NCBI GenBank assembly: GCA_965208635.1
Contig: OZ242349.1
Location: forward strand, 3,852,272-3,916,271
DNA length: 64,000 nucleotides
DNA from: Candidatus Poribacteria bacterium
GTDB lineage: Bacteria; Poribacteria; WGA-4E; WGA-3G
Direction: 5' to 3'
The translations under genes were made by a program, and so were the position numbers. A model generated the notes under the pieces. The model did not search any database. It was not told the origin of the DNA and was given only the letters and a program-made list of their open reading frames with translations. Shown piece after piece: positions 9,933-42,500 of this stretch. Each line of letters starts with the position of its first letter. The first letter of the stretch is position 1.

Positions 9933-10115
9933 GTGTTAAAGCGACAATTGAGGTTTTTGGATTGTAAATGGGATGCTTTTTTCACTTGTATAATAAAGTG
10001 TAACACTATTATTTTACAATACTTTTGATTTTTTTTCAAAAGATTGTCGCAAATCGTAAGCCATTATGTTTTTTTCGTTTAGATGTGTTTATAGAAACGT
10101 CTGAGAATAGCCCGC

Positions 10116-12962: not shown

Positions 12963-14782
12963 AATTGGAATTTGAAGAAATCAAAGGAAACGTTTCGATT
13001 ATCCCATTGGGAGGTTTAGGTGAATTTGGGCTTAACATGATGGTATATGAAACCGAAAATGACATTATCGTCGTTGACACAGGTTTCATGCTACCGAATG
13101 CTGACATGCCCGGTGTCGATCTGATATTACCAGATATCCACTATCTGGTGGAACGACAAGAGAAAATTCGCGGGATCCTTCTAACCCACGGACATGAGGA
13201 TCATATTGGTGCCTTATTCTACGTGCTACGGCAGTTGAATGTGCCGGTCTATGGCACGCAACTCACGCTCGCGATTGCCAGCGGCAGATTGCGCGAATAC
13301 AATGTTCTCAGCAAGGCACAACTCAATACAATTGCTCCAGGCGATACAGTCGAATTGGGTGATTTTTCAGCCGAATTCATCCATGTTACACACAGCATTC
13401 CAGATACAGTGGCAATTGCGCTGCGCACACCGGCCGGTGTTATCGTCCATACAGGCGACTTCAAATTCGACATGACACCTGTTGATGGTAAGTTGAGCGA
13501 CATTCAGACGCTCGCGCGTTTGGGTTCAGAAGGTGTCCTTCTGCTCGTTTCCGACAGCACAAACGCAGAGCGACCCGGACAAACCCCTTCTGAGCGAAGC
13601 ATCTATGGAACGATAGACACTATATTTCAGAAAACGGAACAGAAATTGTTCCTTTGCACCTTTTCTTCGAGTCTACACCGTATCCAACAATTCATTGACT
13701 TGGCAAATATACACCGGCGACTTATCGCTGTCAGCGGTCGTTCTCTCCTCAACAATGTACGTACCGCTTCTGAACTCGGTTACCTCAATCTGAATCCGGA
13801 TTATCTCATTGATGCTCGCGATGCGTCCATGTTCAAACCGCATGAGGTGATGATTTTGAGCACCGGCAGTCAAGGTGAACCCCGCTCTGCCATGTCATTG
13901 ATGGCACTCGACAATCATCCGTTTCTGAAGGTAGAACAAGGTGATACCGTCGTTATCTCTGCAAGGATCATTCCCGGCAATGAGAAAGCGATTGGAAACG
14001 TTGTCAATCATTTGCTCAGACGCGGCGCGAAGATATATCATGAACGCAATGCAAATGTCCACGTATCAGGGCACGGATCAAGCGAAGACCTGAAGTTGAT
14101 GCTCAATCTCCTGAAACCTGAGTTTTTCATGCCGATGCACGGTGAATATCAAAATCTGATGCGGCATGCCGAACTCGCCGAGTCTGTCGGGATACCGAGT
14201 GACAACATTAAAGTCGCTGAAGATGGTGAGCTCATTCAACTTACTTCCGAGACGTGTGAGGTATTGGGACGCGAGGGACGTTCCGGCCGCGTCCTCGTCG
14301 ATGGCAAGCCAGAATTTGAGCTTGAAGATATCGTCCTACGCGACCGTATCCAACTCGCCGAAGACGGCATTCTCGTTCCAATCGTCATCTTGAACAGCGA
14401 TACAGGGGATGAGAATCCAGAGCCAACAGCCAACAGTCAGGAAGATCGCGGGCAGCAATTGGAGGTAACCGTAGCCCATAATGTAATGGAGGGCGGATCT
14501 ACGGAGGACGCCTTTCAAAATTCAGTTCACCTGAACGAACCGCAAGGAAAAATTAGAAAACAGATAGAAATTATTTCGCGTGGATTTGTCTATATGGATA
14601 AATCGGAAGAACTGATAGAGGAAGCAAAAGAAATTACCCTGCGCGTCATTGAGAATCTGAGCGATGAACAGAAACAGGAAACCGAGACCGTCCAAGACGA
14701 GATCCGAGGCGCGCTCCGCCGATTTTTCTCCAAACAGATGCAACGGACACCGCTCATCTTCCCAGTCGTCATGCGGGTTTGA
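12938..14782 (+). CDS. rnj: ribonuclease J (metallo-beta-lactamase/beta-CASP RNase)
   Basis: 'IIPLGGLGEFGLNMMVYE', 'HGHEDHIGA', beta-CASP and C-terminal domain. 614 aa, about 50 aa longer than usual because of a repeat-derived linker insertion. Alternative start TTG at 12963. Confidence 0.9.
   Translation: MPRRPIIKKLEFEEIKGNVSIIPLGGLGEFGLNMMVYETENDIIVVDTGFMLPNADMPGVDLILPDIHYLVERQEKIRGILLTHGHEDHIGALFYVLRQLNVPVYGTQLTLAIASGRLREYNVLSKAQLNTIAPGDTVELGDFSAEFIHVTHSIPDTVAIALRTPAGVIVHTGDFKFDMTPVDGKLSDIQTLARLGSEGVLLLVSDSTNAERPGQTPSERSIYGTIDTIFQKTEQKLFLCTFSSSLHRIQQFIDLANIHRRLIAVSGRSLLNNVRTASELGYLNLNPDYLIDARDASMFKPHEVMILSTGSQGEPRSAMSLMALDNHPFLKVEQGDTVVISARIIPGNEKAIGNVVNHLLRRGAKIYHERNANVHVSGHGSSEDLKLMLNLLKPEFFMPMHGEYQNLMRHAELAESVGIPSDNIKVAEDGELIQLTSETCEVLGREGRSGRVLVDGKPEFELEDIVLRDRIQLAEDGILVPIVILNSDTGDENPEPTANSQEDRGQQLEVTVAHNVMEGGSTEDAFQNSVHLNEPQGKIRKQIEIISRGFVYMDKSEELIEEAKEITLRVIENLSDEQKQETETVQDEIRGALRRFFSKQMQRTPLIFPVVMRV
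14473..14560 (+). repeat. repeat family B copy inserted in-frame in the rnj linker
   Basis: 'gcccataatgtaatggagggcggatctacggagg...ttcagttcacctgaacgaaccgcaaggaaaaatta' matches the terminal modules of the intergenic copy at 17448-17559. It encodes 'AHNVMEGGSTEDAFQNSVHLNEPQGKIRKQ'. Confidence 0.7.
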
Positions 14783-17559: not shown

Positions 17560-17613
17560 ATGAGTTTATTAACGCTCCGCTTACGCTGTATTTTTTTTCA
17601 GGTTCCTAAATCG

Positions 17614-17702
17614 GCAGCCTGCAACACCGGCGCAGGCGGGTCTACGGAAAAGAAAGTGAAGCGATCAACCTACCTGACCGAACCGCAAGGAATAATTAAA
17701 AT
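17614..17702 (+). repeat. repeat family B copy (variant with gcctgcaacaNcggcgcaggcgg palindrome) abutting the leuD start
   Basis: 'cagcctgcaacaccggcgcaggcgggtctacgga...tacctgaccgaaccgcaaggaataattaaaatATG'. Confidence 0.75.
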
Positions 17703-18293
17703 ATGGAAGCATTCAAAGAACACGTGGGACGCGTTGTCCCACTCGACCGGATTAATGTTGACACCGACCAGATTATCCCAAAGCAATTTCTGAAACGGAT
17801 CGAACGAACCGGTTTCGGTGAATTTCTCTTTAACGACTGGCGCTACCTTGAGAGTGGCGATCCGAACCCGGAATTCGTACTGAATCTCCCACGCTACGCA
17901 GGGGCAAGTATCCTCATCGCAGGCGTGAATTTCGGATGTGGCAGCTCGCGCGAGCACGCCCCGTGGGCACTCCAACAATACGGCTTCAAAGCAATTCTCG
18001 CGCCCTCGTTTGCCGATATTTTCCGCAACAATTGCTACAAGAACGGCATTCTCCCGATTGCTCTGCCTGCAGATATTATTACTTCGCTCAGTCAAGAGAC
18101 ACACGCCACCGAGGGCTACCAATTGATGATAGACTTGGAGGAGCAATCGGTCATCTGTTCTGATGGCACCGCCCACACCTTTGAAATCGGTGATTTTGAG
18201 AAATACTGCCTGCTGAACGGACTTGACGAAATCGGCTGGACCTTGCAGTATGAAGCAGACATTGCGGCGTATGAAAATCAGCATGCTTCATAG
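17703..18293 (+). CDS. leuD: 3-isopropylmalate dehydratase small subunit
   Basis: '[20 protein letters not shown]' and '[17 protein letters not shown]' are LeuD signatures. 196 aa. Confidence 0.92.
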
Positions 18294-21733: not shown

Positions 21734-22474
21734 TTGAGGGCAGTTGTCCTTTCCGACGATCGAATCATCGAGTTCCTGAACGAAAATTTTATCAATACAT
21801 GGACGCGTAATGCCGAGCTTAGACGCATGCGTGATTCCCAAGGATTTGAGGGTATGTCTCCCTTGGCACGCACAATCATGAGTAACAAATGGTGGCGAGG
21901 TCCAGTAGATACTTGGGTTATATCCCCTGAATTTGAAGCAATAGGACATGTACCAGTCAATAACTACCTTGACAGCAATAGACGTGAAGATGGTACTTTA
22001 GAAAGTGAGAATTACCTCCTATTTCTCGCGGATTCCTTAGACGGAAAACTCCCTGGATTCGGGAACACTGTTCTCACACCTGAGCAGCCCTCACGACGGA
22101 TACTGGACGTTTTTCGCACCCCAGAATATGGACATCAAGACTACACGGTTGTCGTAATTGATACCACTGCGTTTGAAAATGGCGGCACGCTCATCATTGA
22201 TATTGAAGTGGGTGATGAAAAGGCGTATGGATCATTTCATCTCCTGGATGCCGATCACAAACTTACCTTTGATCCTTATTACAAACGTCCCGAAGGAAGC
22301 CTTCTTGAGGCATCGCACGATACAGGTTGGTTGGGTCCCAACGAAATGGGACAGATGACACATCGTTTTGAGCGTGGACAGATCTTTAAATTGGTCGCTC
22401 TGGGGTGGGCATCTAACGAGAAAGGAAGCGTGAACGCTTTTCACGCAAAAATTTCTGTAGAGGCGGCAGACTGA
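21734..22474 (+). CDS. hypothetical protein (same frame as 20933-21718; TTG start assumed)
   Basis: The frame continues open from 21719. Only a TTG start and a weak RBS are available. Possibly the C-terminal part of one 513-aa product. Confidence 0.45.
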   Translation: MRAVVLSDDRIIEFLNENFINTWTRNAELRRMRDSQGFEGMSPLARTIMSNKWWRGPVDTWVISPEFEAIGHVPVNNYLDSNRREDGTLESENYLLFLADSLDGKLPGFGNTVLTPEQPSRRILDVFRTPEYGHQDYTVVVIDTTAFENGGTLIIDIEVGDEKAYGSFHLLDADHKLTFDPYYKRPEGSLLEASHDTGWLGPNEMGQMTHRFERGQIFKLVALGWASNEKGSVNAFHAKISVEAAD

Positions 22475-23182
22475 TCACTGATTACTAACATCTGACAACC
22501 GCACAAATTGGTACCCATCCTGTTTTAGGGCTGTGATGATTTGATCTGTCGCCTCAACCGTTCCTGAACGATTCGCATCCTTATTCTCTGCTTTCCCATC
22601 GTGTAGAACAATAATCGAACCCGGTTTTGTCTTCGTCAATACCGTTTTAGTGATCTTGTCGGGGTTTTGGGTCGTCCAATCCCAACTCCACACGTTGCAG
22701 CTAATGTGGGCGCGATTCCCTTTCGCGAGCACCCATGCGACTGGCAAAAACCTTGTCAGCACCGGCGCGCGAAACTCGATTTCATCTTCCTTGAAAACCC
22801 CGTTGGGGTGACATCTCTGTAGGAGGGTGTCTGTGCGTTCAATTTCCCGTTGGACATAGGCTGGCGGCAGGAAACCAAGGAGTGGGTGGCTATAAGAATG
22901 ATTGCCGATTTGGTGTCCCTCAACGATAATACGATTTACTGTTTCGGGATGCTTTTCGATCCGATTTCCGATCAGGAAGAAAGTGGCTTTAACATCGTGT
23001 TTCGCAAGGACATCAAGTAATCGATCGGTATAAGGTGGATTCGGTCCATCGTCATAGGTGAGGGCGACAATCCGTTGGTCCGTGTTCAGGCGAACAATAT
23101 TCGTTCCGAAAGGGGGTCTAAAGAACAGCCATAGCAGCATCACCGCGGCGAATGTTACAGCAACTATGATGATAGGGTTCAT
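22475..23182 (-). CDS. polysaccharide deacetylase (NodB homology domain), membrane-anchored
   Basis: 'LTYDDGPNPPYTDRLLDVLAKHDVKATFFLIG' NodB motifs. The start at 23182 gives an ATGA overlap with the crtW stop. The ORF track extends spuriously to 23278. Confidence 0.7.
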   Translation of the reverse strand: MNPIIIVAVTFAAVMLLWLFFRPPFGTNIVRLNTDQRIVALTYDDGPNPPYTDRLLDVLAKHDVKATFFLIGNRIEKHPETVNRIIVEGHQIGNHSYSHPLLGFLPPAYVQREIERTDTLLQRCHPNGVFKEDEIEFRAPVLTRFLPVAWVLAKGNRAHISCNVWSWDWTTQNPDKITKTVLTKTKPGSIIVLHDGKAENKDANRSGTVEATDQIITALKQDGYQFVRLSDVSNQ

Positions 23183-23895
23183 TGAAGGCGCGCTCTCATT
23201 CTCCGTATGACTGGCAAATGCCACCATGGGATGTATGGATACTCGTGGTGTTCCCAATGATACCCGAAGTGGTAACAAGTGATAAACGACCAGAGCGTTG
23301 AATAGGCATTACTCTGCGCGCGGTGAGGGTTATCATACCCACTTTCTGGTATTCGATGTGGTAGATAGGTCCCGAAATAGAACAGTTGCAACGTGCTAAG
23401 CAATGCTGGAGAAACCCAAAACAGGACAAGATTGACGGTGGAAATTGCTAAAATATACTCCATGATTTGAAATACAATCGCCATACCGACTATCTGCTTC
23501 CAACTCAAGTATTCTTTCATGAAATGGAAATACCACGCCAAGAAGCCCGTATGGTGTCCATCGTGAAAATCTGGATCTATATCGCTCGCGGGTGTTCGGT
23601 GGTGCTCCCAGTGTTTTTTTACTAATTTGCGGTATGAAAACAGGGCGTATAGTCTGACAGCGATTGCCCCAATGACATTGTTAATACGCGGATGCGTAGG
23701 ACAAACTGAACCGTGCATCGCATCATGTGCTGTGATAAACAGACCCGTATAGAGAAACGTCTGACAAAGCATGCCCAAAGGCACCACCGCAAGGTGGATG
23801 CGGCTCACATCAAGTGTGAGGAGCATTGAGAGACTCAATCCCCATAAACCGACAATCCCTAACGCAATGAATAAGCCTTTATTTCTTGATTTCAT
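23179..23895 (-). CDS. crtW: beta-carotene 4-ketolase (CrtW-type membrane di-iron enzyme)
   Basis: His boxes 'AHDAMHGS', 'HWEHH' and 'HHEYPYIPWWHLP', and 4 TM helices, as in CrtW ketolases. 238 aa. Confidence 0.65.
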   Translation of the reverse strand: MKSRNKGLFIALGIVGLWGLSLSMLLTLDVSRIHLAVVPLGMLCQTFLYTGLFITAHDAMHGSVCPTHPRINNVIGAIAVRLYALFSYRKLVKKHWEHHRTPASDIDPDFHDGHHTGFLAWYFHFMKEYLSWKQIVGMAIVFQIMEYILAISTVNLVLFWVSPALLSTLQLFYFGTYLPHRIPESGYDNPHRAQSNAYSTLWSFITCYHFGYHWEHHEYPYIPWWHLPVIRRMRARLQ

Positions 23896-24581
23896 AAGTT
23901 GCTTAGACTAACCAATCCAAAATATAGGAGTTGCGCAAAATAGCAGTGAAAAGCGATTCGCGGCAATTGTTGACGAAACAGGCCGACTTGAAAACCGATT
24001 GTCGCGAAGATGAAACTTAATCCAAACCACACCAGATAGTTCCGTAAAGGGATATGGTCGTTCATCCATGTCCAGTAATCCAGTTTCGCTGCCGCCGGTT
24101 CCATAAGCAGATCGAAGCAGACCATTAACAAAGCCACCAGAAATGCTATTTTGAAACGGAAACCTTCTGCTAAAAATTTCGGGATAATCTTCTGAGCAAC
24201 AGCAGTCGAGGCAACGAGCATCACAAACCAAGCAGACCCAATACTGATTGGAACACCACCAATCGATGGTCGCAAGGTCTGTCCATACGAGTATGAACCG
24301 AAAATCTCACCTGTCCGAACACCGAGCCATTCAATCCCAAAACTGACGACAACGATCCCTATACTTGCGATGGCAAACTTCGATCGTTCATGTTGTGGAG
24401 ACTCCCACCAGCATTCCCAAAATAGCCATACGCCCAAACCAATCATGATTGGCGAAGCGAGAACTTGCATGACTTCTTGGAACACACCGAGCACATGCCA
24501 CAAGCCACCCGCGCCTAAAAGTAGATAAAGCGCCCCTATTTTAAGTTTCTTAATTTTGCCTTGTCGTTCGGTTAGGTCCAT
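23892..24581 (-). CDS. polytopic membrane protein, candidate carotenoid 1',2'-hydratase (CruF-like)
   Basis: 229-aa integral membrane protein inside the crt operon, ATGA-coupled to crtW. The assignment is contextual, by analogy with salinixanthin/myxol clusters. Confidence 0.35.
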   Translation of the reverse strand: MDLTERQGKIKKLKIGALYLLLGAGGLWHVLGVFQEVMQVLASPIMIGLGVWLFWECWWESPQHERSKFAIASIGIVVVSFGIEWLGVRTGEIFGSYSYGQTLRPSIGGVPISIGSAWFVMLVASTAVAQKIIPKFLAEGFRFKIAFLVALLMVCFDLLMEPAAAKLDYWTWMNDHIPLRNYLVWFGLSFIFATIGFQVGLFRQQLPRIAFHCYFAQLLYFGLVSLSNL

Positions 24582-24620
24582 TGGGTAAATAACGTCTTAA
24601 CTGAAAACAAAAAACGCCTA

Positions 24621-24710
24621 AGCGCGTAGCCTGCAACAACGGCGCAGGCGGATCTACGGAGAGGCATCTGAAATTACCAATCCCTCTCATCGAACCGCAA
24701 GGTATAATTA
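24621..24710. repeat. repeat family B copy between the GT2 stop and the CruF-like start, inside the operon
   Basis: 'aagcgcgtagcctgcaacaacggcgcaggcggatctacggag...catcgaaccgcaaggtataattaaa' overlaps the GT2 stop codon (24708-24710). Confidence 0.75.
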
Positions 24711-25814
24711 AAGAATCTGTCGTCCCTTCCACTGCAGACGACCGCGTCTGACTTGGTAAAATGAATTAACACCAATCAGCAAAGTCAATAAAACGCCAAA
24801 GGGATGTAAAATTACGCTTGTAACGAAGGGGTGCCTATATTTGAGTGCCAGCACCATCCGCATAACGATGTTCATAACGATAGCAACGATTGCCAATCCT
24901 CTAAGCGTCGCAAACCAGACAGTAATGTACGGTAGCACACACATTGTAAACAGACCGAGCATTAAAATAAAAAACGGTATCATTTTGTAGCGGACCAATC
25001 CAAAAAGGTTTTTGGAAAATCCGTTCCAGACCTCGCTGAACGAATGATACATCCGGCAAGATACCACACACGTTCCCGCCGATGTCAAGATTTTGATACC
25101 TCTCTTTTTCGCCAATCGGCTGAGTTCAACGTCTTCAACAATCTGATTTGATACCGCTTGATGCCCACCGACCCGTTGGTATGCCTCGCGAGTAAAGGCA
25201 ATCCAGAGACCGCTCGCCGCCGCAAGCGACGGGAAACGACTAAAGTAGGTAAGCCATAACGGAAGTCCGGCATAAACGAACAGGTCCACTACCGGAACGA
25301 CGAGTTTTTCTGCCAAGGTGCCAGTCACTTTCTCTGGAAACGCCGAGAGCAAGCCGAGTTCCAACTTCTGCATGTAAGCAACAGTGTTTGCAATCGCGTT
25401 CGGGGCAGGACGGTTATCCGCATCCGTGAAAATGAGTATTTCTCCATCTGCGTGTTGGCTCAGTTGGTGGCACGCCCAGTTTTTTCCAGTCCAGCCTGCT
25501 GGCAACGGTTTACCTTGAATCGCCTGAACTGCAGGATACTGTTCGCCGAATTTTTCAATAATCGTACCCGTGCGATCCGTCGATTGGTCATTGAGAACGT
25601 GAATTTCAAAGTTATCGTAGTTTTGAGACAGGAATCCGTTGATACAGGCACCGATGTTAGTTTCTTCATTACGCGCCGGGATCAGCACCGAGACGCGTGG
25701 ATAGTTCTGGAGACCAACGAATTTCTTCAGCATCGGCGCAGTCACAGTATTAAACAGCGCGACTGCTAAAATAACCGCCAACAGAACTATCGAAATAAGC
25801 ATCAGGATAAACAA
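24708..25814 (-). CDS. family-2 glycosyltransferase (CruC-like carotenoid glycosyltransferase candidate)
   Basis: 'VSVLIPARNEETNIGACINGFLSQNYDNFEIHVLNDQSTDRT' GT2 DxD region, with C-terminal TM helices. 368 aa. Confidence 0.65.
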   Translation of the reverse strand: MFILMLISIVLLAVILAVALFNTVTAPMLKKFVGLQNYPRVSVLIPARNEETNIGACINGFLSQNYDNFEIHVLNDQSTDRTGTIIEKFGEQYPAVQAIQGKPLPAGWTGKNWACHQLSQHADGEILIFTDADNRPAPNAIANTVAYMQKLELGLLSAFPEKVTGTLAEKLVVPVVDLFVYAGLPLWLTYFSRFPSLAAASGLWIAFTREAYQRVGGHQAVSNQIVEDVELSRLAKKRGIKILTSAGTCVVSCRMYHSFSEVWNGFSKNLFGLVRYKMIPFFILMLGLFTMCVLPYITVWFATLRGLAIVAIVMNIVMRMVLALKYRHPFVTSVILHPFGVLLTLLIGVNSFYQVRRGRLQWKGRQIL

Positions 25815-25829
25815 GGTAATACCAACCTT

Positions 25830-26489
25830 TCAATCCAACAGATTTTGTCCCGTTTCTTGGCGAAGAATCCGCAAAGCGAGATCGTCTAATAATGCAGTTT
25901 CAGTCTGTTCGAGCCAATCCATCCCTTGAAATGTGCCCGCATCAAGCGAGTGGACAGTGCCGAACAGAAAAAATACGCGTGGACGCTTTTCACCGAGAAA
26001 CTCGGTGCGAATTGCCAATGGCAGCACAGTGACGGATTTCCGATATTTCCGTAAAATCCATTCGACACCACGTTTGTAACCGAGGGGTCGCGTATGCCAC
26101 GGCAACAGTTCCCCTTGCGGAAAAACGGAGACGAGCGGCATCTCTTGATTCAGTAATTCCACGGTGTATTCAAGGGATTCAATAATACTACGTCGATTCT
26201 CCGGTTCAATTGAATAAGCACCTATTTTTCTAAAGAATTTATATTTCGATAGTTGCTTTTCTAACATCATTAAATAAGCCGTCCGACGAAAGATCTTTTT
26301 GTTCAACAGATAAACGAAGAACCCGTCCCACCATGTACTGTGGTTTGGTAGGAGTAGCACCGGTAGATCGTCGGGTATTTTCGGTAGTGTCCCTAACAAC
26401 TGAATCTCGTGAAAATTCCGCTTGAATAACAAAGTCAGATACGGCTGAAAAATGATGTCCGCCCAAAGGCGGTGCTGTGCACGAATCAT
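25830..26489 (-). CDS. lysophospholipid-type acyltransferase (CruD-like carotenoid glycoside acyltransferase candidate)
   Basis: 'NHSTWWDGF' HX4D acyltransferase motif. ATGA-coupled to crtB. 219 aa. Confidence 0.55.
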   Translation of the reverse strand: MIRAQHRLWADIIFQPYLTLLFKRNFHEIQLLGTLPKIPDDLPVLLLPNHSTWWDGFFVYLLNKKIFRRTAYLMMLEKQLSKYKFFRKIGAYSIEPENRRSIIESLEYTVELLNQEMPLVSVFPQGELLPWHTRPLGYKRGVEWILRKYRKSVTVLPLAIRTEFLGEKRPRVFFLFGTVHSLDAGTFQGMDWLEQTETALLDDLALRILRQETGQNLLD

Positions 26490-27415
26490 CTATTGATTAT
26501 TCCTGAGTGTACAGGAAATAGTTTCTCCTGTGCCGATAGAAATTTTGCCCGAAGTCCCTCGTGTAATAGAATCCCGATTTTCTGACTCGACGGTACAAAG
26601 ACTCGACTTAAGAATGGGTTGTAGTCCTGGTCTTCGATCTTTCTTAAGATACCGCGGTAAATTTTAGCCGCCGAATAAATCGCATACTGCGATTCCGTTT
26701 CGAGTAAAGAAATACCAGGCATGGCTTCAGCATAATAGTGATCTGCTCGTTCAATTTGAAATTTCATCAGGGCTTTCAATTGGGGTGTTATTTTTTCTTC
26801 TAAGATGTCTTGCTCCGCTACGCCGAACCTCACCAAATCCTTCTCTGGTAGATAGATGCGTCCCATATCCTTATCCTCCTTGATGTCCCGAAGGATATTG
26901 GTGAGTTGCATGGCAATGCCGAGTTGTTTGGCGTAATCAAAGGCACGTTCGTCCTTATAGCCGAGGACGTGAGTCATCATCAATCCAACAACAGCCGCAA
27001 CGCGATAACAGAAAAGAGAGAGTTCATCGAATGTTTTATACCGCGTCTGCTGGACATCCATGGCAACTCCCTTGAGCAAATCGAGCGGATATTCAATAGG
27101 GATACCATACGCCTTGGCAACGAGAATGAACGCACGAATAATTGGATGTTGAGACTCACCTGTATTGTAAGCAACCTGTAATTCTTCTGTCAAGAGTTGT
27201 ATCTCCCTAACGATTTCTATTTCAGTGCGTTGACGCGGTGTATCAATCAGATTGTCGCAGTGTCGACAGAAACCGTATAGTGCGTATGTTGCCCAACGCC
27301 GCTCTTTGGGCAGCATCCGTGTTGAGAAGTAAAAACTTTTTGAATAGTAGGCGGTTATCCTACGAGCATACTCAAAGGCAACCCGATTTTCTTCTACTTT
27401 CCACATTTTCTTCAT
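26486..27415 (-). CDS. crtB: phytoene synthase
   Basis: 'YGFCRHCDNLID' and 'ILRDIKEDKDMGRIYLP' squalene/phytoene synthase Asp-rich motifs. 309 aa. Confidence 0.85.
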   Translation of the reverse strand: MKKMWKVEENRVAFEYARRITAYYSKSFYFSTRMLPKERRWATYALYGFCRHCDNLIDTPRQRTEIEIVREIQLLTEELQVAYNTGESQHPIIRAFILVAKAYGIPIEYPLDLLKGVAMDVQQTRYKTFDELSLFCYRVAAVVGLMMTHVLGYKDERAFDYAKQLGIAMQLTNILRDIKEDKDMGRIYLPEKDLVRFGVAEQDILEEKITPQLKALMKFQIERADHYYAEAMPGISLLETESQYAIYSAAKIYRGILRKIEDQDYNPFLSRVFVPSSQKIGILLHEGLRAKFLSAQEKLFPVHSGIINR

Positions 27416-28956
27416 GATAAACCCTCCTGAATCAAATCTTTAGCGACAAGTTTCGTCGTCGTCTCTGCTGTCAGCAGAACACCCGGTACGCCTGCTCCGG
27501 GATGTGTGCTTGCGCCGACAAAGTAGAGTTTCTGTATATCTTCACTTCGGTTATGCGGTCGAAAATACGCTGTTTGTGTTAGTTTTGGCTCAACTCCCCA
27601 TGCACTACCCAGATGGTTGTTCCGTTCCCGCCTAAAATCTGACGGCGTAAACGTTTCAAGCACTTCAATTGAACACTTTAGGTCCGTCAGTCCAAAATCA
27701 TTTTCCAAGAACGTTAGCACTTTGTCCGTATATGCCACCTTCGTCTTCTCCCAGTTGACCCCACTCTCCAGATTCGGCACTGGGATCAGGACATACATAC
27801 TCTCGCAGCCTTCCGGTGCCATTGACGGGTCGGTTTGAGACGGAATGTGGAGATACATTGAAAAATCCTTTGGGAGCACTTTATTATCAAAGATGTCATC
27901 TATCAATCCTTTATATCTCTCGGAAAGAATGAGTGTATGGTGCTTCAGTTGCGGATATTTCTTACGGACACCGAGATAGAGCAGGAAGGCACTCATCGAA
28001 TATTGGATCTTTCGGAGTTTCTTGTCAGACCATTTTCTACGATGTTCGGACTTAATAAGTTCACCATAGGTGTGGAACAGATCGGCATTCGAAATAACCC
28101 CGTCTGCTTCATAAAATTTTAACCAAGAACGCGCGCCTTTAACATGTATATCGGAGTCGCGTTCTTGGTTAACGTTCGCTAAAACTCCCTTTGCTTTTCG
28201 ATTTTTAACAACGATTTCTTCAACTTCTGTGTCAGTCTCAACGATGCCACCGAGTCTTTTGAAGACGTTCTCTAATGCCTGAACAAAGTTGTACATACCA
28301 CCTTTACAGAACCAGACCCCTCCAGTTTTTTCAAGATAAGGGATCATCAAGTAGACCGCGGGTGCCCGAAAAGGGTTGCCACCAATAAACAGCGGATGAA
28401 ATGAGAAGGTGAAGCGATGACGCGGATCCTCAAAATACCTCTTAACAAAATCGTAGGCGGGCATCAATGCCTGGAGTCGCAGCGCACGCGGCAGAAAACC
28501 GAGCATCGTCGGCAAATCAAATGCGGTCGCGCCTAACCCGTCTGTGATAACAGCATCGTAAAGTTGACGAGTATGCGCCATGAAATGGTCGTAGTTATCA
28601 GCGTCTGTTGTACTAAACTGAGCCATTTGACGTTTCATCTGTTCGCTATCAGCCGTATAATCGAGAGATGTACCATCATGAAAATAGATGCGATAAAATG
28701 GGTCGAGTTTCACCAAGTCAAGGTAATCTTCCATCCGTACCCCGGCACATTCAAACACGCGTTGAATCAAGTCAGGCGCAGTGATAATCGACGGTCCCAT
28801 GTCGAAGGTATAGCCTTCTTTAACCAGTTGATAAGCATGACCACCAACTTTCGCATTCTTCTCCAGAAGCGTGACTTGCATGCCTCTGGCTTGGAGTCGG
28901 ATCCCTGCTGCGAGTCCGCCAAATCCTGAACCGATGATAACAATTTTCCGCTTCAT
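27412..28956 (-). CDS. crtI: phytoene desaturase (CrtI family)
   Basis: 'KIVIIGSGFGGLAAGIRLQARGMQVTLLEKNAKVGGHAY' FAD fold and a conserved CrtI C-terminus. 4-nt overlaps on both sides. 514 aa. Confidence 0.8.
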   Translation of the reverse strand: MKRKIVIIGSGFGGLAAGIRLQARGMQVTLLEKNAKVGGHAYQLVKEGYTFDMGPSIITAPDLIQRVFECAGVRMEDYLDLVKLDPFYRIYFHDGTSLDYTADSEQMKRQMAQFSTTDADNYDHFMAHTRQLYDAVITDGLGATAFDLPTMLGFLPRALRLQALMPAYDFVKRYFEDPRHRFTFSFHPLFIGGNPFRAPAVYLMIPYLEKTGGVWFCKGGMYNFVQALENVFKRLGGIVETDTEVEEIVVKNRKAKGVLANVNQERDSDIHVKGARSWLKFYEADGVISNADLFHTYGELIKSEHRRKWSDKKLRKIQYSMSAFLLYLGVRKKYPQLKHHTLILSERYKGLIDDIFDNKVLPKDFSMYLHIPSQTDPSMAPEGCESMYVLIPVPNLESGVNWEKTKVAYTDKVLTFLENDFGLTDLKCSIEVLETFTPSDFRRERNNHLGSAWGVEPKLTQTAYFRPHNRSEDIQKLYFVGASTHPGAGVPGVLLTAETTTKLVAKDLIQEGLS

Positions 28957-30449
28957 ACGTCCTTGCTCCTGTCATAATTTTCCGCGATTAATGTCGCCGC
29001 TATTTTTCCAGACAATATTACCAACGGAATTCCGCCTCCCGGATGCACTGAACCCCCCGCGAAGTAAAGCCCGTCAAGGAGACGGCTTCGATTCGGTAGA
29101 CGCTTAAATGCTGTGGCTTTGCTATTCGACGATACACCGTAGATACTCCCTTGGTTACTGGCATAAAGTTCAGAGAAATCCTCTGGTGTGTAAATCTGCT
29201 CTACCTCAATCTGATCTGCGATGTCGAAACCCAGTTGCTTTAATCTATCCAGCACAACCTGCCGCATCCGAGTTTTTTCTTGCTCCCACATCTGTCCGGG
29301 GACCAAATACGGCATGTTCAACAACACGAACCAATTCTCGCCATCAACTGGCGCATCCACCGTATCCGTCTTACTTGTTATGGCAATATAGATAGTCGGT
29401 TCATCTGGTACTTTTCGATGTTTGAAAATCTGCTTGAATTCTGCATTATAGTCGTTGGAGAAAATAATGTTGTGATGTGCTAACGCTGGCTGTTTCGCTC
29501 TAACGCCCCACAGGAATACCATTCCAGACAACGATGGCTCCAAGCGATTGAGTCTTTTTTCTCGAGTCTGATGTCCATCAATCAATTCGTCATGTGCTAC
29601 GACTGCATCCGCACCACAGAGTACGTACTTCGCCCCAACTTTCTCACCATTCACTCGCACCCCACTCACCCGTTTGTCATCATGACAGATTTTTTCGACT
29701 TTCGCCGATGTATGAATCTGAACACCTAACTCACATGCCACCGCTTTCAAAGCATCGATCAAACGGTATATTCCGCCTTTGATATAGTACCCTCCTAATC
29801 CGTATTCAATATACGGAATTATGTTAAGGGTCGCCGGGGCTTGAAATGGATCGGAACCGTTGTAAGTCGCGTAGCGGTCAAAGAGTTGAATGAGCCGCGA
29901 GTCAGAGAAAAAACGTGACACGCTTTGGTGTACCGTCCGAAACGGATCAATTTGATGAAGCCTGAATAACGTCCGAAAGTGCCGATGTCGCATGAGTTTC
30001 CTAAATTCATGGATCGGAGTAAACATAAAGATTTCGGCTGTTAGATTGTGAATACGTTCTGCATATTTCAAGAACCGTTCATACGCCTTCACATCACTCG
30101 GCGATAGCTGGGCAATAGCGGCTTTCATTTTTGTCTTATCCGCACTGGCATCCATCACGGCACCATCAGGGAAGAAGTATCGGCATATCGGGTCAATTGG
30201 CACGAAATCGAGATAATCCGACCTCTTGAATCCAGCGAAATTGAAGAGTTCATCGATGACAGAGGGCATCGTCAGCAATGAGGCACCCGTGTCAAACCGA
30301 TAGTCTGCCAAAACTACCTCGTTTACCTTTCCACCGAGCTGCGGATTCTTCTCAAATAGCTGAACGGAGAATCCTAAGCGTGCAAGGCGAATCGCACCAC
30401 TCAGTGATCCAAGTCCACCACCAATGACTGCTACTGTTTTATTTTCCAT
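28953..30449 (-). CDS. CrtI-family carotenoid desaturase (CrtD-like 3',4'-desaturase candidate)
   Basis: 'MENKTVAVIGGGLGSLSGAIRLARLGFSVQLFEKNPQLGGK'. Start placed at the internal ATG (30449), which is preceded by the repeat-B start context 'caggaacaattaaaaaATG'. The ORF track extends to 30575. Confidence 0.65.
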   Translation of the reverse strand: MENKTVAVIGGGLGSLSGAIRLARLGFSVQLFEKNPQLGGKVNEVVLADYRFDTGASLLTMPSVIDELFNFAGFKRSDYLDFVPIDPICRYFFPDGAVMDASADKTKMKAAIAQLSPSDVKAYERFLKYAERIHNLTAEIFMFTPIHEFRKLMRHRHFRTLFRLHQIDPFRTVHQSVSRFFSDSRLIQLFDRYATYNGSDPFQAPATLNIIPYIEYGLGGYYIKGGIYRLIDALKAVACELGVQIHTSAKVEKICHDDKRVSGVRVNGEKVGAKYVLCGADAVVAHDELIDGHQTREKRLNRLEPSLSGMVFLWGVRAKQPALAHHNIIFSNDYNAEFKQIFKHRKVPDEPTIYIAITSKTDTVDAPVDGENWFVLLNMPYLVPGQMWEQEKTRMRQVVLDRLKQLGFDIADQIEVEQIYTPEDFSELYASNQGSIYGVSSNSKATAFKRLPNRSRLLDGLYFAGGSVHPGGGIPLVILSGKIAATLIAENYDRSKDV

Positions 30450-30545
30450 ATTTTTAATTGTTCCTGAAGACTCGCGCAATTCCTTACAGGCTACGCGCTT
30501 TAGTTTACCCAAGACAGCAGCCTGCAACATCGGCGCAGGGTTTTT
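30450..30545 (-). repeat. repeat family B copy (minus orientation) supplying the crtD-like start context
   Basis: 'cagcctgcaacatcggcgcagggtttttgcaatgtaat...' is followed on the minus strand by 'ggaacaattaaaaaATG'. 'ggctacgcgctt' is the inverse of 24620-24631. Confidence 0.6.
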
Positions 30546-30684
30546 GCAATGTAATACATTGTCCCGCAAGTCCACACGTTGTCCTCGGATGCCACACGCG
30601 CATCCGTTCTGGTGCTACGGATTTCGTCTATCCCCAGACGAAATCCGGTGTTTCTTCAAGATTTGAGAAACGCACGCAACAGTT

Positions 30685-31377
30685 CTAACGCCCGTTGTTT
30701 CTCCGCAAGGTAAAATTAAAAACTTTTTCGTAGAACATTGCGTTAAAGAGCATCAATGTAAATCCGTATCCGAAATCCTCAATGGGAATTGTCAAAATTC
30801 GGTAACCCATCTGATGCGCCTCACCATATAAAACCACAGGTCGCGCCGTGAGATAACTGTTGAATATCAGAATTAAACCAAAAACAATTCCAATATAGAT
30901 ATAGGTCTTCAGTTGCATAAGCAACTCGGTCCGTAGCAACGTGTCTGTCAGTCCAACAAGCCCAACACAAATCAGAACCAATCCTGTGTACTGCTTACCC
31001 GTGCTGAAAACCCATACACCGATCGGCAGTGCTACGTATAAAACTGTTCTGACATGCCGAAGAGGTCTCAATCGTGTTGATAGTTTCGCATCCGACAATG
31101 TTTCCCATACCAACAGACATCCATAAGGGGCAGTGATGAAAAAGAACCATTCTCCAATCGGCAAACCGAGCAATCGGAAGTCAAGCGTATACGTCTCGTT
31201 GAACCACCAATGTGAACCAGTGACAAGGATGTCCCATATAATATACGGGATCATGACGAACACCGTCGTGAGCAATTTCAATCGCCAATGTGATATATGC
31301 CTAATTTGCTGGTTGAATTGCGATACTACCGGTCCAACGACCACAATGAGATTAAACAAGAGGTATTCAAATTGCAT
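30685..31377 (-). CDS. lycopene cyclase, fused CrtYc/CrtYd-domain type
   Basis: Two halves each with a PxE(E/D)xxF motif ('LPIGEWFFF', 'IPIEDFGYGF'). 7 TM helices. 230 aa. Confidence 0.65.
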   Translation of the reverse strand: MQFEYLLFNLIVVVGPVVSQFNQQIRHISHWRLKLLTTVFVMIPYIIWDILVTGSHWWFNETYTLDFRLLGLPIGEWFFFITAPYGCLLVWETLSDAKLSTRLRPLRHVRTVLYVALPIGVWVFSTGKQYTGLVLICVGLVGLTDTLLRTELLMQLKTYIYIGIVFGLILIFNSYLTARPVVLYGEAHQMGYRILTIPIEDFGYGFTLMLFNAMFYEKVFNFTLRRNNGR

Positions 31378-31394
31378 TGATGTGCGACTCGGTG

Positions 31395-31970
31395 CTACGG
31401 TTGTAATCTGTCTTTCAACGTTTGGAGGTATACTTTCTCGTCATCCGTCAATTTTGCATTTTCAAGTAAGAACGCAACGACCTGTGTCATTAACTTCGGG
31501 TTATAGGTATCCATCTGCTGTGGCATCAATTTGATAATTTCCCTGAAATCGCGCTGAGCGTCATCACCACGTCTGAAAAAGAATGGAAGATAGTAGCAGG
31601 TCGTACCGTGGATGAAAAGAGCTTCAATATCGTTTGAACTTTTCTCTAAGCCGCTATCCATGATTGCTAAACCGCGCTGCGCCCACTTGAGTTTGGTGTG
31701 TGGAAGAAATGCGTGTTTGCCTCTCAGCGCAATAAGTGAACCAATATAGACCTGCGTCCGCCCAGTGTACTTCGGTTCCATTTGTCTAATTCGTTTAAGC
31801 AACGCAATTGTCGGTTCAATCCGTTTCTCGTCTTTGATCGCGGCATAGAATTGCTTTCGAGCAACTTCCAGCATTTCTTCTACCGATTTCTCGGACGTAG
31901 CACCGTCAACTCGCAACGAGAAAATCAATGCTAATATCAAACTTATATATACACATCGGTTAGGTTTCAT
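31395..31970 (-). CDS. hypothetical secreted alpha-helical protein
   Basis: Signal peptide 'MKPNRCVYISLILALIFSL' with a likely start at 31970. No known motif. Lies inside the crt operon. Confidence 0.45.
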   Translation of the reverse strand: MKPNRCVYISLILALIFSLRVDGATSEKSVEEMLEVARKQFYAAIKDEKRIEPTIALLKRIRQMEPKYTGRTQVYIGSLIALRGKHAFLPHTKLKWAQRGLAIMDSGLEKSSNDIEALFIHGTTCYYLPFFFRRGDDAQRDFREIIKLMPQQMDTYNPKLMTQVVAFLLENAKLTDDEKVYLQTLKDRLQP

Positions 31971-32535
31971 CGCAAAAACTGATTTTTTGGGAGTGTTCAA
32001 CAACGCGATCTAACGCCAGTTTGAACCAGTGTGTGTAATTTTTCGGGTTCTCCCGAACATCCTGCTTCAACACCTGTATGTCCATCCACTTCCAATCATC
32101 AACTTCGTCCGGATTCGGAATAGGTTGACCACTATAGTGTCCAACAAAGACATAGTCGAGCTCGTGCTCAAATAAGCTATTGTCGAGTTGGATGTGGTAA
32201 ATAAAACTGAAAATCTCCTTAAGGTCACAATCGAAACCCATTTCCTCATGGAGGCGTCGCCGCGCCGCGTGATGATGATTTTCACCAGGTCGTGGGTGAC
32301 TACAACAGGTATTCGTCCACAATCCGCCGGAGTGATACTTCGTTTGTGCCCGTCTCTGAAGCAGCAATTCGCCTACAGCGTTAAAGACAAAGACCGAAAA
32401 GGCACTGTGTAATTTACCATCACGATGTGCTTGTATCTTTTCTTGAACGCCGATTTCTTTTCCCGTGTGATCGACGAGTATTACATGCTCTTGCATCGCT
32501 TTATATTTTTTCCTTTTCCTCGGTTGTGCTTTCAT
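31960..32535 (-). CDS. idi: isopentenyl-diphosphate delta-isomerase, type 1 (Nudix)
   Basis: 'HSAFSVFVFN..GELLLQRRAQTKYHSGGLWTNTCCSHP' and 'HEEMGF' are IDI-1 signatures. 191 aa. Confidence 0.8.
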   Translation of the reverse strand: MKAQPRKRKKYKAMQEHVILVDHTGKEIGVQEKIQAHRDGKLHSAFSVFVFNAVGELLLQRRAQTKYHSGGLWTNTCCSHPRPGENHHHAARRRLHEEMGFDCDLKEIFSFIYHIQLDNSLFEHELDYVFVGHYSGQPIPNPDEVDDWKWMDIQVLKQDVRENPKNYTHWFKLALDRVVEHSQKISFCDET

Positions 32536-33006
32536 ACCGATCTGCTGTCTAATCGCGATCGGTATGATTTTCCAGTTTAAATTGGGGACTGAATCACTAT
32601 GTATAATATTATTACATATTGTCTATATTATGTCAACAATAATTTAGACAATATCATAATTATTCGTATTTTGTATAGAAATTGTGTGGCGAAATAGAAT
32701 CGGATCGTTCAATCAAAATTCACTATAAAGTGGCGATTCTAAACGAGATTGAGATATTCTCTTTGTTAGGTTCTGAAACTTAGACAGATATAATTTATTG
32801 ACAAATAATAGACATAATGTTATATTAAATCGTAAGATTTAGATGTAAAACGTAAACGTTGACGATATGGTTTACAATTGCTAAATGAACCCGTGTGGTG
32901 ATATTATAATTCGACTGGAATTAGATTTTAATATACTGCTCATGATGTTAACTCAGCAACACCGATGAAACATTAAGCTCCAATAGGAAAATAAAAGAGG
33001 GAAAGG
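32536..33006. promoter_or_regulatory. 470-bp AT-rich bidirectional control region between the crt operon and the carH-like gene
   Basis: Sharp AT spike with direct repeats of 'ttgacaa-ataat-agaca(a)ta' type at about 32620-32660 and 32790-32830. Candidate CarH operator or promoters. Confidence 0.5.
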
Positions 33007-33978
33007 TTGATGGCGGATGAATATAAACACGGTATTAAAACCGTTGCCAGTCAGACAGGATTAACACAATTTATCATTCGGGCGTGGGAGAAACGGTACG
33101 ATGTGGTCACACCGCGGCGAACCGAAACGAATCGCCGCCTCTATTCCGATGCGGATATACTGCGTCTCACGTTGCTTCGTTTGGCGACTGAGGCGGGGCA
33201 TAACATTGGACGAATAGCAAAGTTGCCGAGTGAAGAACTTCTGGAGCTCATTGGAACAGGTGGGACAGTCGCACAGTTGCCTCGGATCGCGAAAGAGGTC
33301 GTCCCACAAGAAACATCGCTTCGTTTTTACATCGCTTCGTGCATCGCAGCGGTTAAGCAGTTTGAAGCACAAGCACTTGAGTCGACACTCTTCGCGGCAT
33401 CAGTCGCCTTTAGCCAGCCTATTTTCCTGGAAAAGTTGATTACACCGTTGATGCAGGAAGTTGGTGAACAGTGGAAGGCAGGAACTTTGCGGATTGCCCA
33501 CGAACATCTTACCGCGGCGGTTGTCCGGACACTGTTGGGAAATATTTGCCAAGGATCTGATATATCCACCTCAATGCCAAACTTAGTGGTCGCTACACCT
33601 CGGGGGCAGCTCCACGAAATCGGCGCATTGATTGCAGGAACGACTGCAGCCTCGCAAGGATGGCAAGTCACCTATCTCGGTCCCAATCTGCCAGCTGAAG
33701 AAATTGTAGGATGTGCAGTGCAAAATGGGGCAAAAGCAATTGGGTTGAGTATCGTTTATCCCACAGATGATCCACACTTGGTAAATGAATTGCGCAAACT
33801 TCGACGTGGAATCCAAGAGGGTGTTGCACTGTTTGTTGGAGGGAGCGGGGCAAGTGCTTATGATCCTGTCATTAGTGCTATCGGGGCAGTGAGAATCAAT
33901 GATATGTCGACTTTTCGGACCGAACTCGAAGCCTTGCGTGTGCAACAGAACGCCTCAGAAACGTCGGAGGAATCGTAG
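33007..33978 (+). CDS. MerR-family transcriptional regulator with C-terminal cobalamin-binding domain (CarH/LitR-like photoreceptor)
   Basis: N-terminal MerR HTH 'IRAWEKRYDVVTPRRTETNRRLYSDADILRL'. B12-binding signature 'GQLHEIGALI' (ExHxxG), 'SxL' and 'FVGGSGA'. 323 aa. Confidence 0.75.
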   Translation: MMADEYKHGIKTVASQTGLTQFIIRAWEKRYDVVTPRRTETNRRLYSDADILRLTLLRLATEAGHNIGRIAKLPSEELLELIGTGGTVAQLPRIAKEVVPQETSLRFYIASCIAAVKQFEAQALESTLFAASVAFSQPIFLEKLITPLMQEVGEQWKAGTLRIAHEHLTAAVVRTLLGNICQGSDISTSMPNLVVATPRGQLHEIGALIAGTTAASQGWQVTYLGPNLPAEEIVGCAVQNGAKAIGLSIVYPTDDPHLVNELRKLRRGIQEGVALFVGGSGASAYDPVISAIGAVRINDMSTFRTELEALRVQQNASETSEES

Positions 33979-34092
33979 CGGAGAGACTACCTTGGTTCAA
34001 ATTGCCAGTTCTCGATCATCGAACAAGAGTTGTGTGGTAACAGAAACGACTTCGTTACGCTCGCGTCTTTAACCAATAACTGATAACCGAAA

Positions 34093-34109
34093 GGATTTCG
34101 CAGAAATCC
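34093..34109. terminator. small hairpin ggatttc-gca-gaaatcc in a family-C repeat between convergent genes
   Basis: 7-bp stem located between the carH-like stop (33978) and the GH29-like stop (34135). Confidence 0.3.
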
Positions 34110-34134
34110 ATACCGAGAACCATTCTGCCAATGA

Positions 34135-39576: not shown

Positions 39577-42500
39577 TCACCTCAAAATATCCTCGGGTCC
39601 ATGGGATTCTGTGAAGGTTGTCCAGATACCTGTGCGTTTATCGTAACGGCTCAATCCACGATAGGTTCCGAACCAGACGAACGGACTATCTACAGCCATC
39701 GAAAGGATACCGTTATGTGCTAAGCCGTCCTCTCGGGTGTAAGTCGTCCAACTATTCGTCAACTGATCAAACCGACTGACCCCAGCATTGTAGGTGCCAA
39801 TCCAGACTTCAGTGCCATCAACACCTATAGAGGTAACTTTGTTGCTGGCAAGTCCATCTGCTGTCGTATAGTCAGCCCAAACCTCTGTCTTTTCGTTGTA
39901 GAGTGTCACACCGCGGTCGCTGCCAAACCAGACATTGTCGCCAGCAATCACGATACAACTCACTTCATCACTCGCAAGTCCATCTTCCACTGTTATCGTC
40001 TTCCAGATATCCCGACCGATGTCATATTGACTGACACCCCTGCGTGTCCCGACCCAGACGTGTTTCTTACTTGCCGTGATACACCAAATTTGATCGGTAA
40101 CCAACGATTCAGCAAACTCTTTAGACACAGCAGAAGGCTGGATTTCAGTGCCCGATGTGTAGGTAATCCATGCATTGCGATCATCCGCTGTGCGGGGGTA
40201 CTTTCCGATCCCAGAATTAGTGCCAACCCAGATACTATCGGCATCGCTACTCACAGAAGTTATATTGTTGGCGGGCAGTCCATGCTCAGTTTTGTACTGA
40301 TCCCACCGCAGGGCTATCTTATCAAAGCGATTCGCCCCGTCGCGTGTCCCAACCCAGACGTATTGGTCATCGACCATAATAGAACTCACAACGTCATCGG
40401 AGAGGCAGTCTTTCTTTTTCCGTCTATGTCGGTGCCAGTGCCCTCCATGGGTTTCTATGTTTTCGGAGCCACCTTCCTGCCGATAATTCTTCCATGTCCC
40501 CAGGATCTTGTCGTAGCGTGACATACCTTTATCCGTACCGACCCAGACGAAACGCTCATCTGTATCTACCGTCCGAATAGTGCGTCCAACGAGGGTCGGT
40601 AGTGCCGTCAACGGGGTCCAAGATTCTTTCTGTTTGTCATAACGGGAAAGTCCACGCAACGTACCCACCCATACATAGTCCTCATCCACTGCGAGCCCAT
40701 ACTCACCCACATGGTTATGGAGCAGCCCTTTGATATCTCTAAACCTTGCCCAAGTCCCAGAGGCAAAATGAAAGCGTCGAAGCCCATCGTTGGGGGCAGC
40801 TAACCACAGATAATCGTCATCGGCTGCCAGCTCAAGCGTTCCACGTCCGGATCTGATCGTCGTCCATTCCTTTGTGCGCCTGTCGTATCGGGTAACACCT
40901 GCATCCTCCCAAGGTCTGTAGAGTATCCATACATCTTTTTCTGTAGCGATAATACGTCTAATCGTCCTTGAAGCCAGCACGTCATTCGTCGAAAATGTCG
41001 TCCATTTCTTTGTCTTTTTATCGTATCGCGACAACGGACGGTTGCTATCTCTATCCCATTCCGAGCGCGCAACCCAGATGAAATCATCATCTACAGTAAT
41101 CCACTCCGCGCCTCTGCCTGCCAATCCGTCTCTCGGTCCAAAATCTTTCCATTCACCCGTGATTTCATTGTACTGAGTCAGGGTCCGCCCGGATCCAAAC
41201 CAGACGTTCGGTCCATCGACCCCAAGTGCATTCAATCGCTCAATCTGAGTCCCTTCATCAGGAGCGACCACATCCCATGTCCCAGTCGCTTTACTATAAT
41301 GGCTCAATTCCAAACCTATCATCGGGATGACCCAAACACTCTGTTCACTCACAGCAATCTTGTCTACATCGTTTGTAGAAAGACCATCCTCTGTCGTAAA
41401 ATGTTGCCATGTATCCGAAGTTTTATCGTAACGGAGAACCCCATAGTCCGTTGTGAACCAGACTGCATCCGTGTCAATATGCGTCCAACGGATAAGTGTC
41501 ATGGCTCTTTTCTGCGTAGACTGCAGAATGTCTACGCGCGTGAAACGCCGCCATGTCTCTGTTGAACGATGAAACCGGACAAGAGCACCGTTCGGCGAAG
41601 CCCCCCAGCTATTGAGCCAGATGTAATCCCCATCAAACTTGATGTTTGAGACCAATGTTTCAAGGAACGGCTCCCGTACCGGCCGAGATTGATGTAGAAC
41701 CTCTCTTCCATTTTGTGAGTCATATTCGACGAGTCCTGTATCTGTCGCCAACCAAAGTGTTCCGTCTGCATCACACAGAATGTCGCGAATGTTATACGGC
41801 ACATTTGAGAGAGAATTCCAAGAATCAGAAGCAATCGTGTAACTTCCCAGTCCCTGTGGTGTGCCGATCCAGAGAATCCCATCTTGAAAGGCAAGTGCGG
41901 TGACATTCGGCGACGGCAATTGGTCATTAAAGGACAGTGGGACCCAACGCTGACGGGTCTTGTCATATCTTGCAAGACCGCGGCGTGTTCCCGCCCAAAG
42001 TGTCTGTTCTCGGGGATCGGTTTGTAACTCTGAATCAGTGGAAAGTAGCACATTAACGTACGGATTCGGAAGACCATCGGCAACACGGTGCATCTGCTTA
42101 TCGACGATTGCGTATTGCAAAACACCTTCCGCGCCGCCAAACCAGACTTTCTCATCGTGAGCAAGCACGGCTAATATAAGCGGATTTTTCGGCGTGTCCG
42201 GTGGTGTCAGTTGTGTCCATTCCTGCGCTGTTGTATCGTACACGGCAGGACCGAAACTTGTACCAACCCAGACCCGGTGATTCTGTGATGCAGTGCCAGT
42301 ATCAACTGATGTCACAAAAGCTTCGCCTTGTGTCTGTGTTCGAGGTGGGACATGAAATGTCCACTCTTCCTCTAAATATGCTCGCGTGCCAAGCCCTCGA
42401 TCGCTCCCAATCCAGACCTGGGCATCGCCATTGTTTAGGATTTCGTCAGTGGTGTCCTGTTCCGATTCAGAAGGTTGAGACGTAAAATTGATTGACGTAA

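Follow-up and report, generated by a model that had tools for sequence, protein, structure and literature searches.

The 64,000-nucleotide (nt) stretch of contig OZ242349.1 from Candidatus Poribacteria (assembly GCA_965208635.1), hereafter called the window, carries eleven open reading frames (ORFs) at 22475–32535, every one of them on the minus strand and all intact. We conclude that they very probably represent an ordinary carotenoid operon of sponge-associated Candidatus Poribacteria, which is probably switched by light and is predicted to lead to a salinixanthin-type product. The pathway itself consists of ten of these genes, not eleven; the last one, encoding a deacetylase, lies outside it.

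A first-pass annotation of this DNA had placed eleven minus-strand genes here and had read them, following the CrtB/I/cyclase/CrtW/CruF/CrtD/CruC/CruD logic, as a route to a monocyclic keto-carotenoid acyl glycoside. Its genes stand, both as ORFs and in their Pfam and NCBIfam family assignments, and its biosynthetic logic is supported by hidden Markov model (HMM) assignments, by synteny in approximately 70 genomes, and by the pigments of Ignavibacterium album.

Gene content and layout of the operon

The window proteins were assigned with Pfam and NCBIfam HMMs and their curated cut-offs. The operon opens with idi, a type-1 isopentenyl-diphosphate isomerase (31960–32535; NF002995, 175 bits with a cut-off of 127; TIGR02150, 131 bits with a cut-off of 106). 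It is followed by a gene for a secreted helical protein (hereafter hyp) and by a fused CrtYc/Yd-type lycopene cyclase of 230 amino acids (aa) with two PF18916 stretches and TIGR03462 (30685–31377). Next come a CrtD-like 1-hydroxycarotenoid 3,4-desaturase (28953–30449), which passes crtI_fam and whose best match is NF042421 (390.8 bits, cut-off 500), the phytoene desaturase CrtI (27412–28956; TIGR02734, that is crtI_fam, 544.6 bits), and the phytoene synthase CrtB (26486–27415; PF00494, 261 bits). The second half of the operon encodes a CruD-like acyltransferase of the lysophospholipid type (25830–26489; PF01553), in which NHSTWWD represents the HX4D motif, a CruC-like glycosyltransferase of family GT2 (24708–25814; PF00535), and a CruF-type carotenoid 1',2'-hydratase in a short form of 229 aa (23892–24581; PF04240, 95.2 bits with a cut-off of 25). 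The last two genes are the beta-ring 4-ketolase CrtW (23179–23895; NF045690, 368.6 bits, above the cut-off of 350), whose sequence shows the histidine boxes HDAMH, HWEHH, and HWEHH, and the deacetylase. For the latter and for hyp, the closest homologues with a named source come from Candidatus Poribacteria (66–100% identity).

The operon had also been described as tightly coupled, with five 4-nt overlaps. Direct reading of the junctions revealed five exact ATGA overlaps (crtD/crtI, crtI/crtB, crtB/acyltransferase, cruF/crtW, and crtW/deacetylase), so the count is correct, but the description as a whole holds only in part, as gaps of 235 nt and 126 nt separate the cyclase from crtD and GT2 from cruF, respectively. 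The idi and hyp genes overlap by 11 nt, and two other gaps are short (15 and 17 nt). The likely true starts, as opposed to those of the longest ORFs, are at 23182 for the deacetylase, 30449 for crtD, and 31970 for hyp; GT2 probably starts with the ATG at 25802, and idi possibly at 32496.

The same arrangement is present in the independent assembly L004, which is 98.6% identical to the region at the nucleotide level. Thus, the layout is not an assembly artefact. Inside cruF, a patch at 23836–24435 diverges by approximately 7% from the otherwise ~99%-identical L004: these 600 nt hold 44 of the 138 mismatches, and the affected codons change non-synonymously in 18 cases and synonymously in 17. A recombination tract is the probable explanation.

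The cassette in other phyla and in known systems

For comparison, 80 outgroup loci from GTDB genomes were retrieved with an alignment of CruF relatives and scored by tblastn with the window proteins. The alignment comprised 12 sequences, since a 37-sequence version was too diverse. Its pattern misses sponge Poribacteria, whose loci were found by a separate search of the encoding contigs. Many of the outgroup contigs are short, and the gene counts are therefore lower bounds.

The order (hyp)-cyclase-crtD-crtI-crtB-acyltransferase-GT2-cruF-crtW recurs, with protein identities of 40–67%, in Calditrichota, KSB1, Kapabacteria, Ignavibacteria, Zhuqueibacterota, one pelagic Poribacteria metagenome-assembled genome (MAG), and several poorly labelled MAGs. 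Among the 80 loci, GT2 was found in 71, the acyltransferase in 67, crtI and crtD in 59 each, crtB in 54, and the cyclase and crtW in 41 each; GT2 adjoins the acyltransferase in at least 67. While the uncharacterised cassettes L007–L082 share the gene order of the window operon, they lack the deacetylase and carry idi in one locus only. A weak B12-binding regulator lies upstream on the opposite strand in about 15 of them.

Among the closest known systems is I. album, which produces 1'-OH-torulene and deoxyflexixanthin; their elution profile has been ascribed to glycosyl fatty-acyl esters (PMC3362086). Compared by gene set, it has the same eight enzyme types as the window, with CrtW rather than CrtO, and the aglycone predicted for the window operon is the same. 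The relatives of CruF include L016, a locus from Ignavibacteria. Relative to I. album, the Poribacteria operon adds the leading idi, the secreted protein gene, and a divergent carH.

The salinixanthin pathway of Salinibacter ruber and Rhodothermus marinus (PMC5822342, PMC7414004) follows the same chemical logic towards the expected product class, and that cluster also holds a MerR-type regulator, as here. Unlike the window, with its CrtW and fused CrtYcd-type cyclase, both organisms use CrtO and a CrtY-type cyclase. In addition, the R. marinus genes are split between two divergent operons, with a cruF-crtB fusion and with cruC at another genomic location, whereas the window gathers all steps in a single operon.

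The megaplasmid cluster of Thermus thermophilus (L087) has carH divergent to crtB. A gene with a lycopene cyclase domain precedes an acyltransferase gene and then a glycosyltransferase gene there, and these two are homologues of the pair in the window. The glycosyltransferases are 34% identical and the acyltransferases 27% (E 7e-11), with NHSTWWD aligned with NHHGFFD. The isopentenyl-diphosphate isomerase of that cluster is of type 2 (fni), in contrast to the type 1 enzyme of the window. A P450 hydroxylase is present there and cruF, crtD, and crtW are absent, so the products of Thermus are bicyclic.

In loci L084–L086 (Jeotgalibacillus, Pontibacillus), cruF-like, acyltransferase, GT2, and crtD-like genes form a run with another order, so the glycoside-ester module is not confined to the FCB-type cassette but travels in Bacillales as well.

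Proposed pathway and product

Transcription of the operon would most likely start at a sigma-70-like promoter near 32608–32636. Idi is expected to feed the isoprenoid pool, from which CrtB would form phytoene and CrtI lycopene. The fused cyclase would then close one end of the molecule to give gamma-carotene, CruF would hydrate the open end at C1',2', and CrtD would desaturate C3',4'. With a 4-keto group added by CrtW, the predicted intermediate is deoxyflexixanthin. Its 1'-OH would be glycosylated by the CruC-like GT2, and the sugar would be esterified with a fatty acid by the HX4D CruD-like acyltransferase. The best-supported predicted product is therefore a deoxyflexixanthin glycoside fatty-acid ester, a membrane pigment of the salinixanthin type that may serve in photoprotection. 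Of the earlier label, "salinixanthin/myxol-like", the first half fits; myxol does not, because none of the eleven operon genes matched a ring-hydroxylase or 2'-hydroxylase family.

Several observations weigh against this reading. The equivalog HMMs for CruF, CrtD, CruG, and CarH all score below their curated cut-offs. For CruF, the scores are 72.5 against 154.7 (TIGR03460) and 44.2 against 400 (NF045693); GT2 reaches 117.6 against 600 with the CruG model NF045692 (E 6e-34) and 165.8 against 379 with the model of HpnB, and thus resembles the hopanoid-associated HpnB and, additionally, HpnI. CruC and CruD had no match in the HMM library, and both labels are suggested by domain family, synteny, and 27–34% identity to the Thermus pair, whose role we presume from the thermozeaxanthin literature. 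There is no geranylgeranyl diphosphate synthase among the operon genes, and the sequence does not fix whether the cyclase stops after one ring. Moreover, a repeat inserted in front of cruF (see below) leaves this gene without an obvious Shine-Dalgarno sequence, so that less CruF and CrtW might be produced.

The low HMM scores point to CruF, CrtD, GT2, and CarH being divergent subfamily members. CruF, in particular, belongs to a divergent short subfamily: a length of approximately 230 aa is typical of its 150 nearest cluster representatives. None of the alignment columns invariant in its relatives has been lost from it. The first-pass annotation had considered that the GT2, the acyltransferase, and the membrane protein might turn out to belong to unrelated families, which did not happen (PF00535, PF01553, and PF04240). 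The HMM search it had proposed for CruF, CruC, and CruD recovered the CruF domain, with scores below the cut-offs of the CruF equivalogs, and returned no match to a CruC or CruD model.

A different outcome, which we consider unlikely, is that the main product is bicyclic, that is echinenone or canthaxanthin made from beta-carotene and CrtW, and that the CruF/CrtD/GT2/acyltransferase branch is minor. Nothing in the sequence sets the ring number, and CrtYcd-type cyclases of other organisms produce beta-carotene. However, four of the ten pathway genes act on the open psi-end alone and are conserved together with the cyclase across phyla, and monocyclic carotenoids accumulate in I. album, with its matching gene set.

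A candidate light switch

Divergently from the operon, on the plus strand at 33007–33978, lies a carH/litR-type regulator gene with PF13411 (MerR helix-turn-helix), PF02607, and PF02310 (B12-binding) domains. Among the NCBIfam models, its product matches CarH best (NF052513, 111 with a cut-off of 400), and it shares 30% identity with CarH of Thermus thermophilus (E 2e-31). In the alignment of the two proteins, Wx9EH and the HEIG histidine, which is the lower ligand, coincide with their Thermus counterparts (WKAGTLRIAHEH, LHEIGA).

The two best sigma-70-like sites of the region face each other, each with a TTGACA-N5-TAGACA sequence over its -35 element. The promoter-like site for carH is at 32798–32826 on the plus strand (TTGACA-N5-TAGACA at 32798–32814; 11 of 12 consensus positions and an extended -10 TG), and the one for the operon is at 32608–32636 on the minus strand (TTGACA-N5-TAGACA at 32620–32636). 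These are the only two matches in the whole window, one per divergent promoter, and two or more matches occurred in 6 of 100 shuffles. By analogy, we infer that the sequence over the operon -35 is a candidate CarH operator.

Given the known behaviour of CarH, the B12-dependent repressor probably closes the operon promoter in the dark, and the operon is probably induced by light. Such induction agrees with a metatranscriptome of Aplysina aerophoba from 2026, where the Poribacteriota transcripts of lycopene cyclase and idi were higher by day (PMC12879404).

A repeat found at varying gene junctions

The GT2/cruF junction contains a repeat of approximately 95 nt at 24617–24712, reverse relative to the operon, which supplies the TAA stop codon of GT2. 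The first-pass annotation had recognized it, as a family-B repeat at 24621–24710. A second full copy with 76% identity is present at 17605–17700, along with partial copies at 14536–14557 and 30508–30539; none is expected by chance. BLAST of all fetched loci gave no match to the repeat in L007–L082.

The two orientations of the repeat contribute different signals. In the forward one, its end reads CGAACCGCAAGGAATAATTAAA, followed by two bases and ATG, and forms a ribosome-binding context for the next gene. This is the case for leuD at 17703 of the window, at the leuC/leuD junction, and for crtB and crtI in L001. In the reverse orientation, the end of the repeat gives a TAA stop codon, both to GT2 in the window and to crtD in L001.

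In different strains, the repeat occupies different gene junctions. L001 has copies at 3839–3872, 4037–4054, and 5638–5725, and the crtD/crtI and crtI/crtB junctions, which are ATGA overlaps in the window, hold repeat copies in L001 and L002. At the GT2/cruF junction the situation is reversed: the genes overlap by 4 nt in L090 and by 8 nt in L005, and a repeat copy separates them in the window and L004. The window repeat thus breaks a coupling of GT2 and cruF that L090 and L005 retain.

In two related Poribacteria assemblies, L001 (7325–9283) and L002 (7104–9050), GT2 and CruF form one ORF of 648–652 aa with a 57-aa polar linker. This GT2-CruF (CruC-CruF) fusion is distinct from the CruF-CrtB fusion of Rhodothermus marinus. 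Only one of the 150 CruF cluster representatives is fused, and L005 and L090 have separate overlapping genes. We therefore regard the fusion as a derived state and reject the idea that the repeat split an ancestral fused gene. A structured RNA or a terminator was likewise rejected, as the repeat folded on either strand showed no significant structure (z-scores of -0.2 to -0.8). No terminator-like site was found within it.

The 235-nt gap between the cyclase and crtD (30450–30684) holds the partial repeat copy at 30508–30539 and a hairpin at 30618–30647. The hairpin (CGGATTTCGTCT...AGACGAAATCCG) has a perfect 12-bp stem, and no T-run follows it on the operon strand.

These insertions raise the question of whether the operon is decaying, with the repeats at the GT2/cruF and cyclase/crtD junctions uncoupling or silencing the downstream genes and thereby ending synthesis of the complete glycoside ester. 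The lost GT2/cruF overlap and the want of a clear ribosome-binding site for cruF are compatible with this scenario, as are the outright deletion of the operon, at least twice, in related genomes and the crtW of L005, which matches in two frames and is probably frameshifted. Nevertheless, we find decay improbable: all eleven ORFs are intact, CruF keeps its invariant columns, the split arrangement persists in a second assembly, the repeat has neither a significant fold nor a terminator-like site, and carotenoid transcripts of Poribacteria are detected in sponges.

The deacetylase as a neighbour of the operon

The last gene of the operon (22475–23182, minus strand) encodes a membrane-anchored CE4/NodB deacetylase (PF01522) with an N-terminal membrane helix and five CE4 motifs, all apparently undamaged on inspection of the sequence. 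Its start overlaps the crtW stop codon, by the ATGA mentioned above in the window, and also in L001, L002, L003, L004, and L090. In this lineage, it probably shares the operon transcript.

Searched up to 10 kb from the cassette with a threshold as loose as E 0.01, none of the 80 outgroup loci yielded a NodB homologue. In the more distant Poribacteria genome L005 (6097–6829 and 6840–9747), crtW and the deacetylase are kept apart by genes for OCD/mu-crystallin, MR_MLE, and AIM24, all three on the opposite strand.

Three further Poribacteria genomes, L006, L088, and L089, are represented by contigs of 5–6 Mb. There, a fucosidase gene is followed directly by a full-length deacetylase with 82–85% identity, and around 9700–10000 the module from carH to crtW, corresponding to 23183–34134 of the window, is missing. 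The deacetylase gene of L088 and L089 is preceded by a 77-nt remnant of the crtW 3' end, encoding HWEHHEYPYIPWW..RRMR.RLQ and a stop codon, and a 23-nt fragment of carH survives as well. The crtW scar in front of the full-length gene means that in these two genomes the operon was deleted and the deacetylase kept. The junction in L006 is different and cleaner, and we therefore treat it as a separate deletion event. This indicates at least two independent deletions of the operon in Poribacteria.

Since the deacetylase is absent from the 80 outgroup loci and is kept where the operon was deleted, it is a translationally coupled backbone neighbour and not a member of the pathway, which corrects the first-pass annotation, where it appeared as an extra gene of an eleven-gene operon. 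Judging from its sequence, it is most simply explained as an envelope polysaccharide or peptidoglycan deacetylase. It is very unlikely to be a working step in a Nod-factor-like scheme, in which GT2 would add an N-acetyl-hexosamine, the NodB homologue would deacetylate it, and the acyltransferase would re-acylate it to yield an amino-sugar carotenoid lipid; the overlap with crtW in six loci, the intact-looking motifs, and the resemblance of GT2 to HpnB and HpnI speak for such a step, but the outgroup cassettes, the interrupted arrangement of L005, and the three genomes that keep the gene with the carotenoid genes gone speak against it.

A secreted helical protein that accompanies the cassette

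The second gene of the operon, hyp (31395–31970, minus strand), encodes an all-helical, tetratricopeptide repeat (TPR)-like protein of 191 aa with a Sec-type signal peptide. Its orthologues also carry a Sec signal peptide, many of them with an AxA-type cleavage site. There was no Pfam or NCBIfam match, and a profile compared with PDB sequences gave only noise (E of at least 0.5). A profile search for relatives found 312 proteins, all unnamed or hypothetical; none of the named ones comes from a cultured organism. Its strongly conserved motifs are TYxGxLxALxGKHAFxPxxK and EALFIHGxTCYxLPFFFxR.

An AlphaFold (AF2) model built from a diverse alignment was confident and all-helical (predicted local distance difference test score 87.4, predicted TM-score 0.79). 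With this model, Foldseek returned weak matches to TPR domains (best E approximately 2e-3, TM-scores of 0.4–0.59). The modelled fold thus appears to be a helical repeat that is TPR-like only.

The protein had been taken for an extra peculiar to this operon, which it is not: its HMM detects it in 28 of the 80 outgroup loci, in several phyla, and in 23 of them the gene ends 0–45 nt before the cyclase gene. Seventeen outgroup loci with a cyclase have no hyp. In L072, L073, and L082, hyp is located directly upstream of crtD and no cyclase gene was detected, which suggests an acyclic variant of the cassette that retains hyp.

We interpret hyp as a frequent, non-enzymatic periplasmic accessory of the cassette. 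As for its role, we can only guess that the amphipathic pigment might use it as a periplasmic scaffold or carrier. A bolder reading, less likely than not, is that carotenoid acyl-glycoside pathways have in hyp a functional part that had escaped notice, possibly one that leads the product from the inner-membrane enzymes to its final place in the envelope.

Other features of the window

A terminator-like hairpin is located at 22428–22446 on the minus strand, 3' of the deacetylase gene. A scan of the whole window at the Rfam gathering thresholds gave no match. At approximately 39600–43450, we observed two families of diverged direct repeats of 35–42 nt, with eight copies each and spacing in multiples of about 126 nt, which indicates a large gene for an internally repetitive protein.

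Significance

The operon is a carotenoid gene cluster of a known type, and its main value lies in the biology of Poribacteria and in the uncharacterised accessory protein. It is worth stressing that a tempting over-reading could be corrected, with the deacetylase recognized as a passenger. The small secreted protein family, in turn, travels with the cassette in several phyla.

Poribacteria are abundant uncultivated sponge symbionts, long thought to be shielded in the sponge interior. Our analysis assigns to them a concrete pigment pathway, with a predicted product, and a putative light switch. Among their strains, the carotenoid trait varies through clean deletions that leave a scar.

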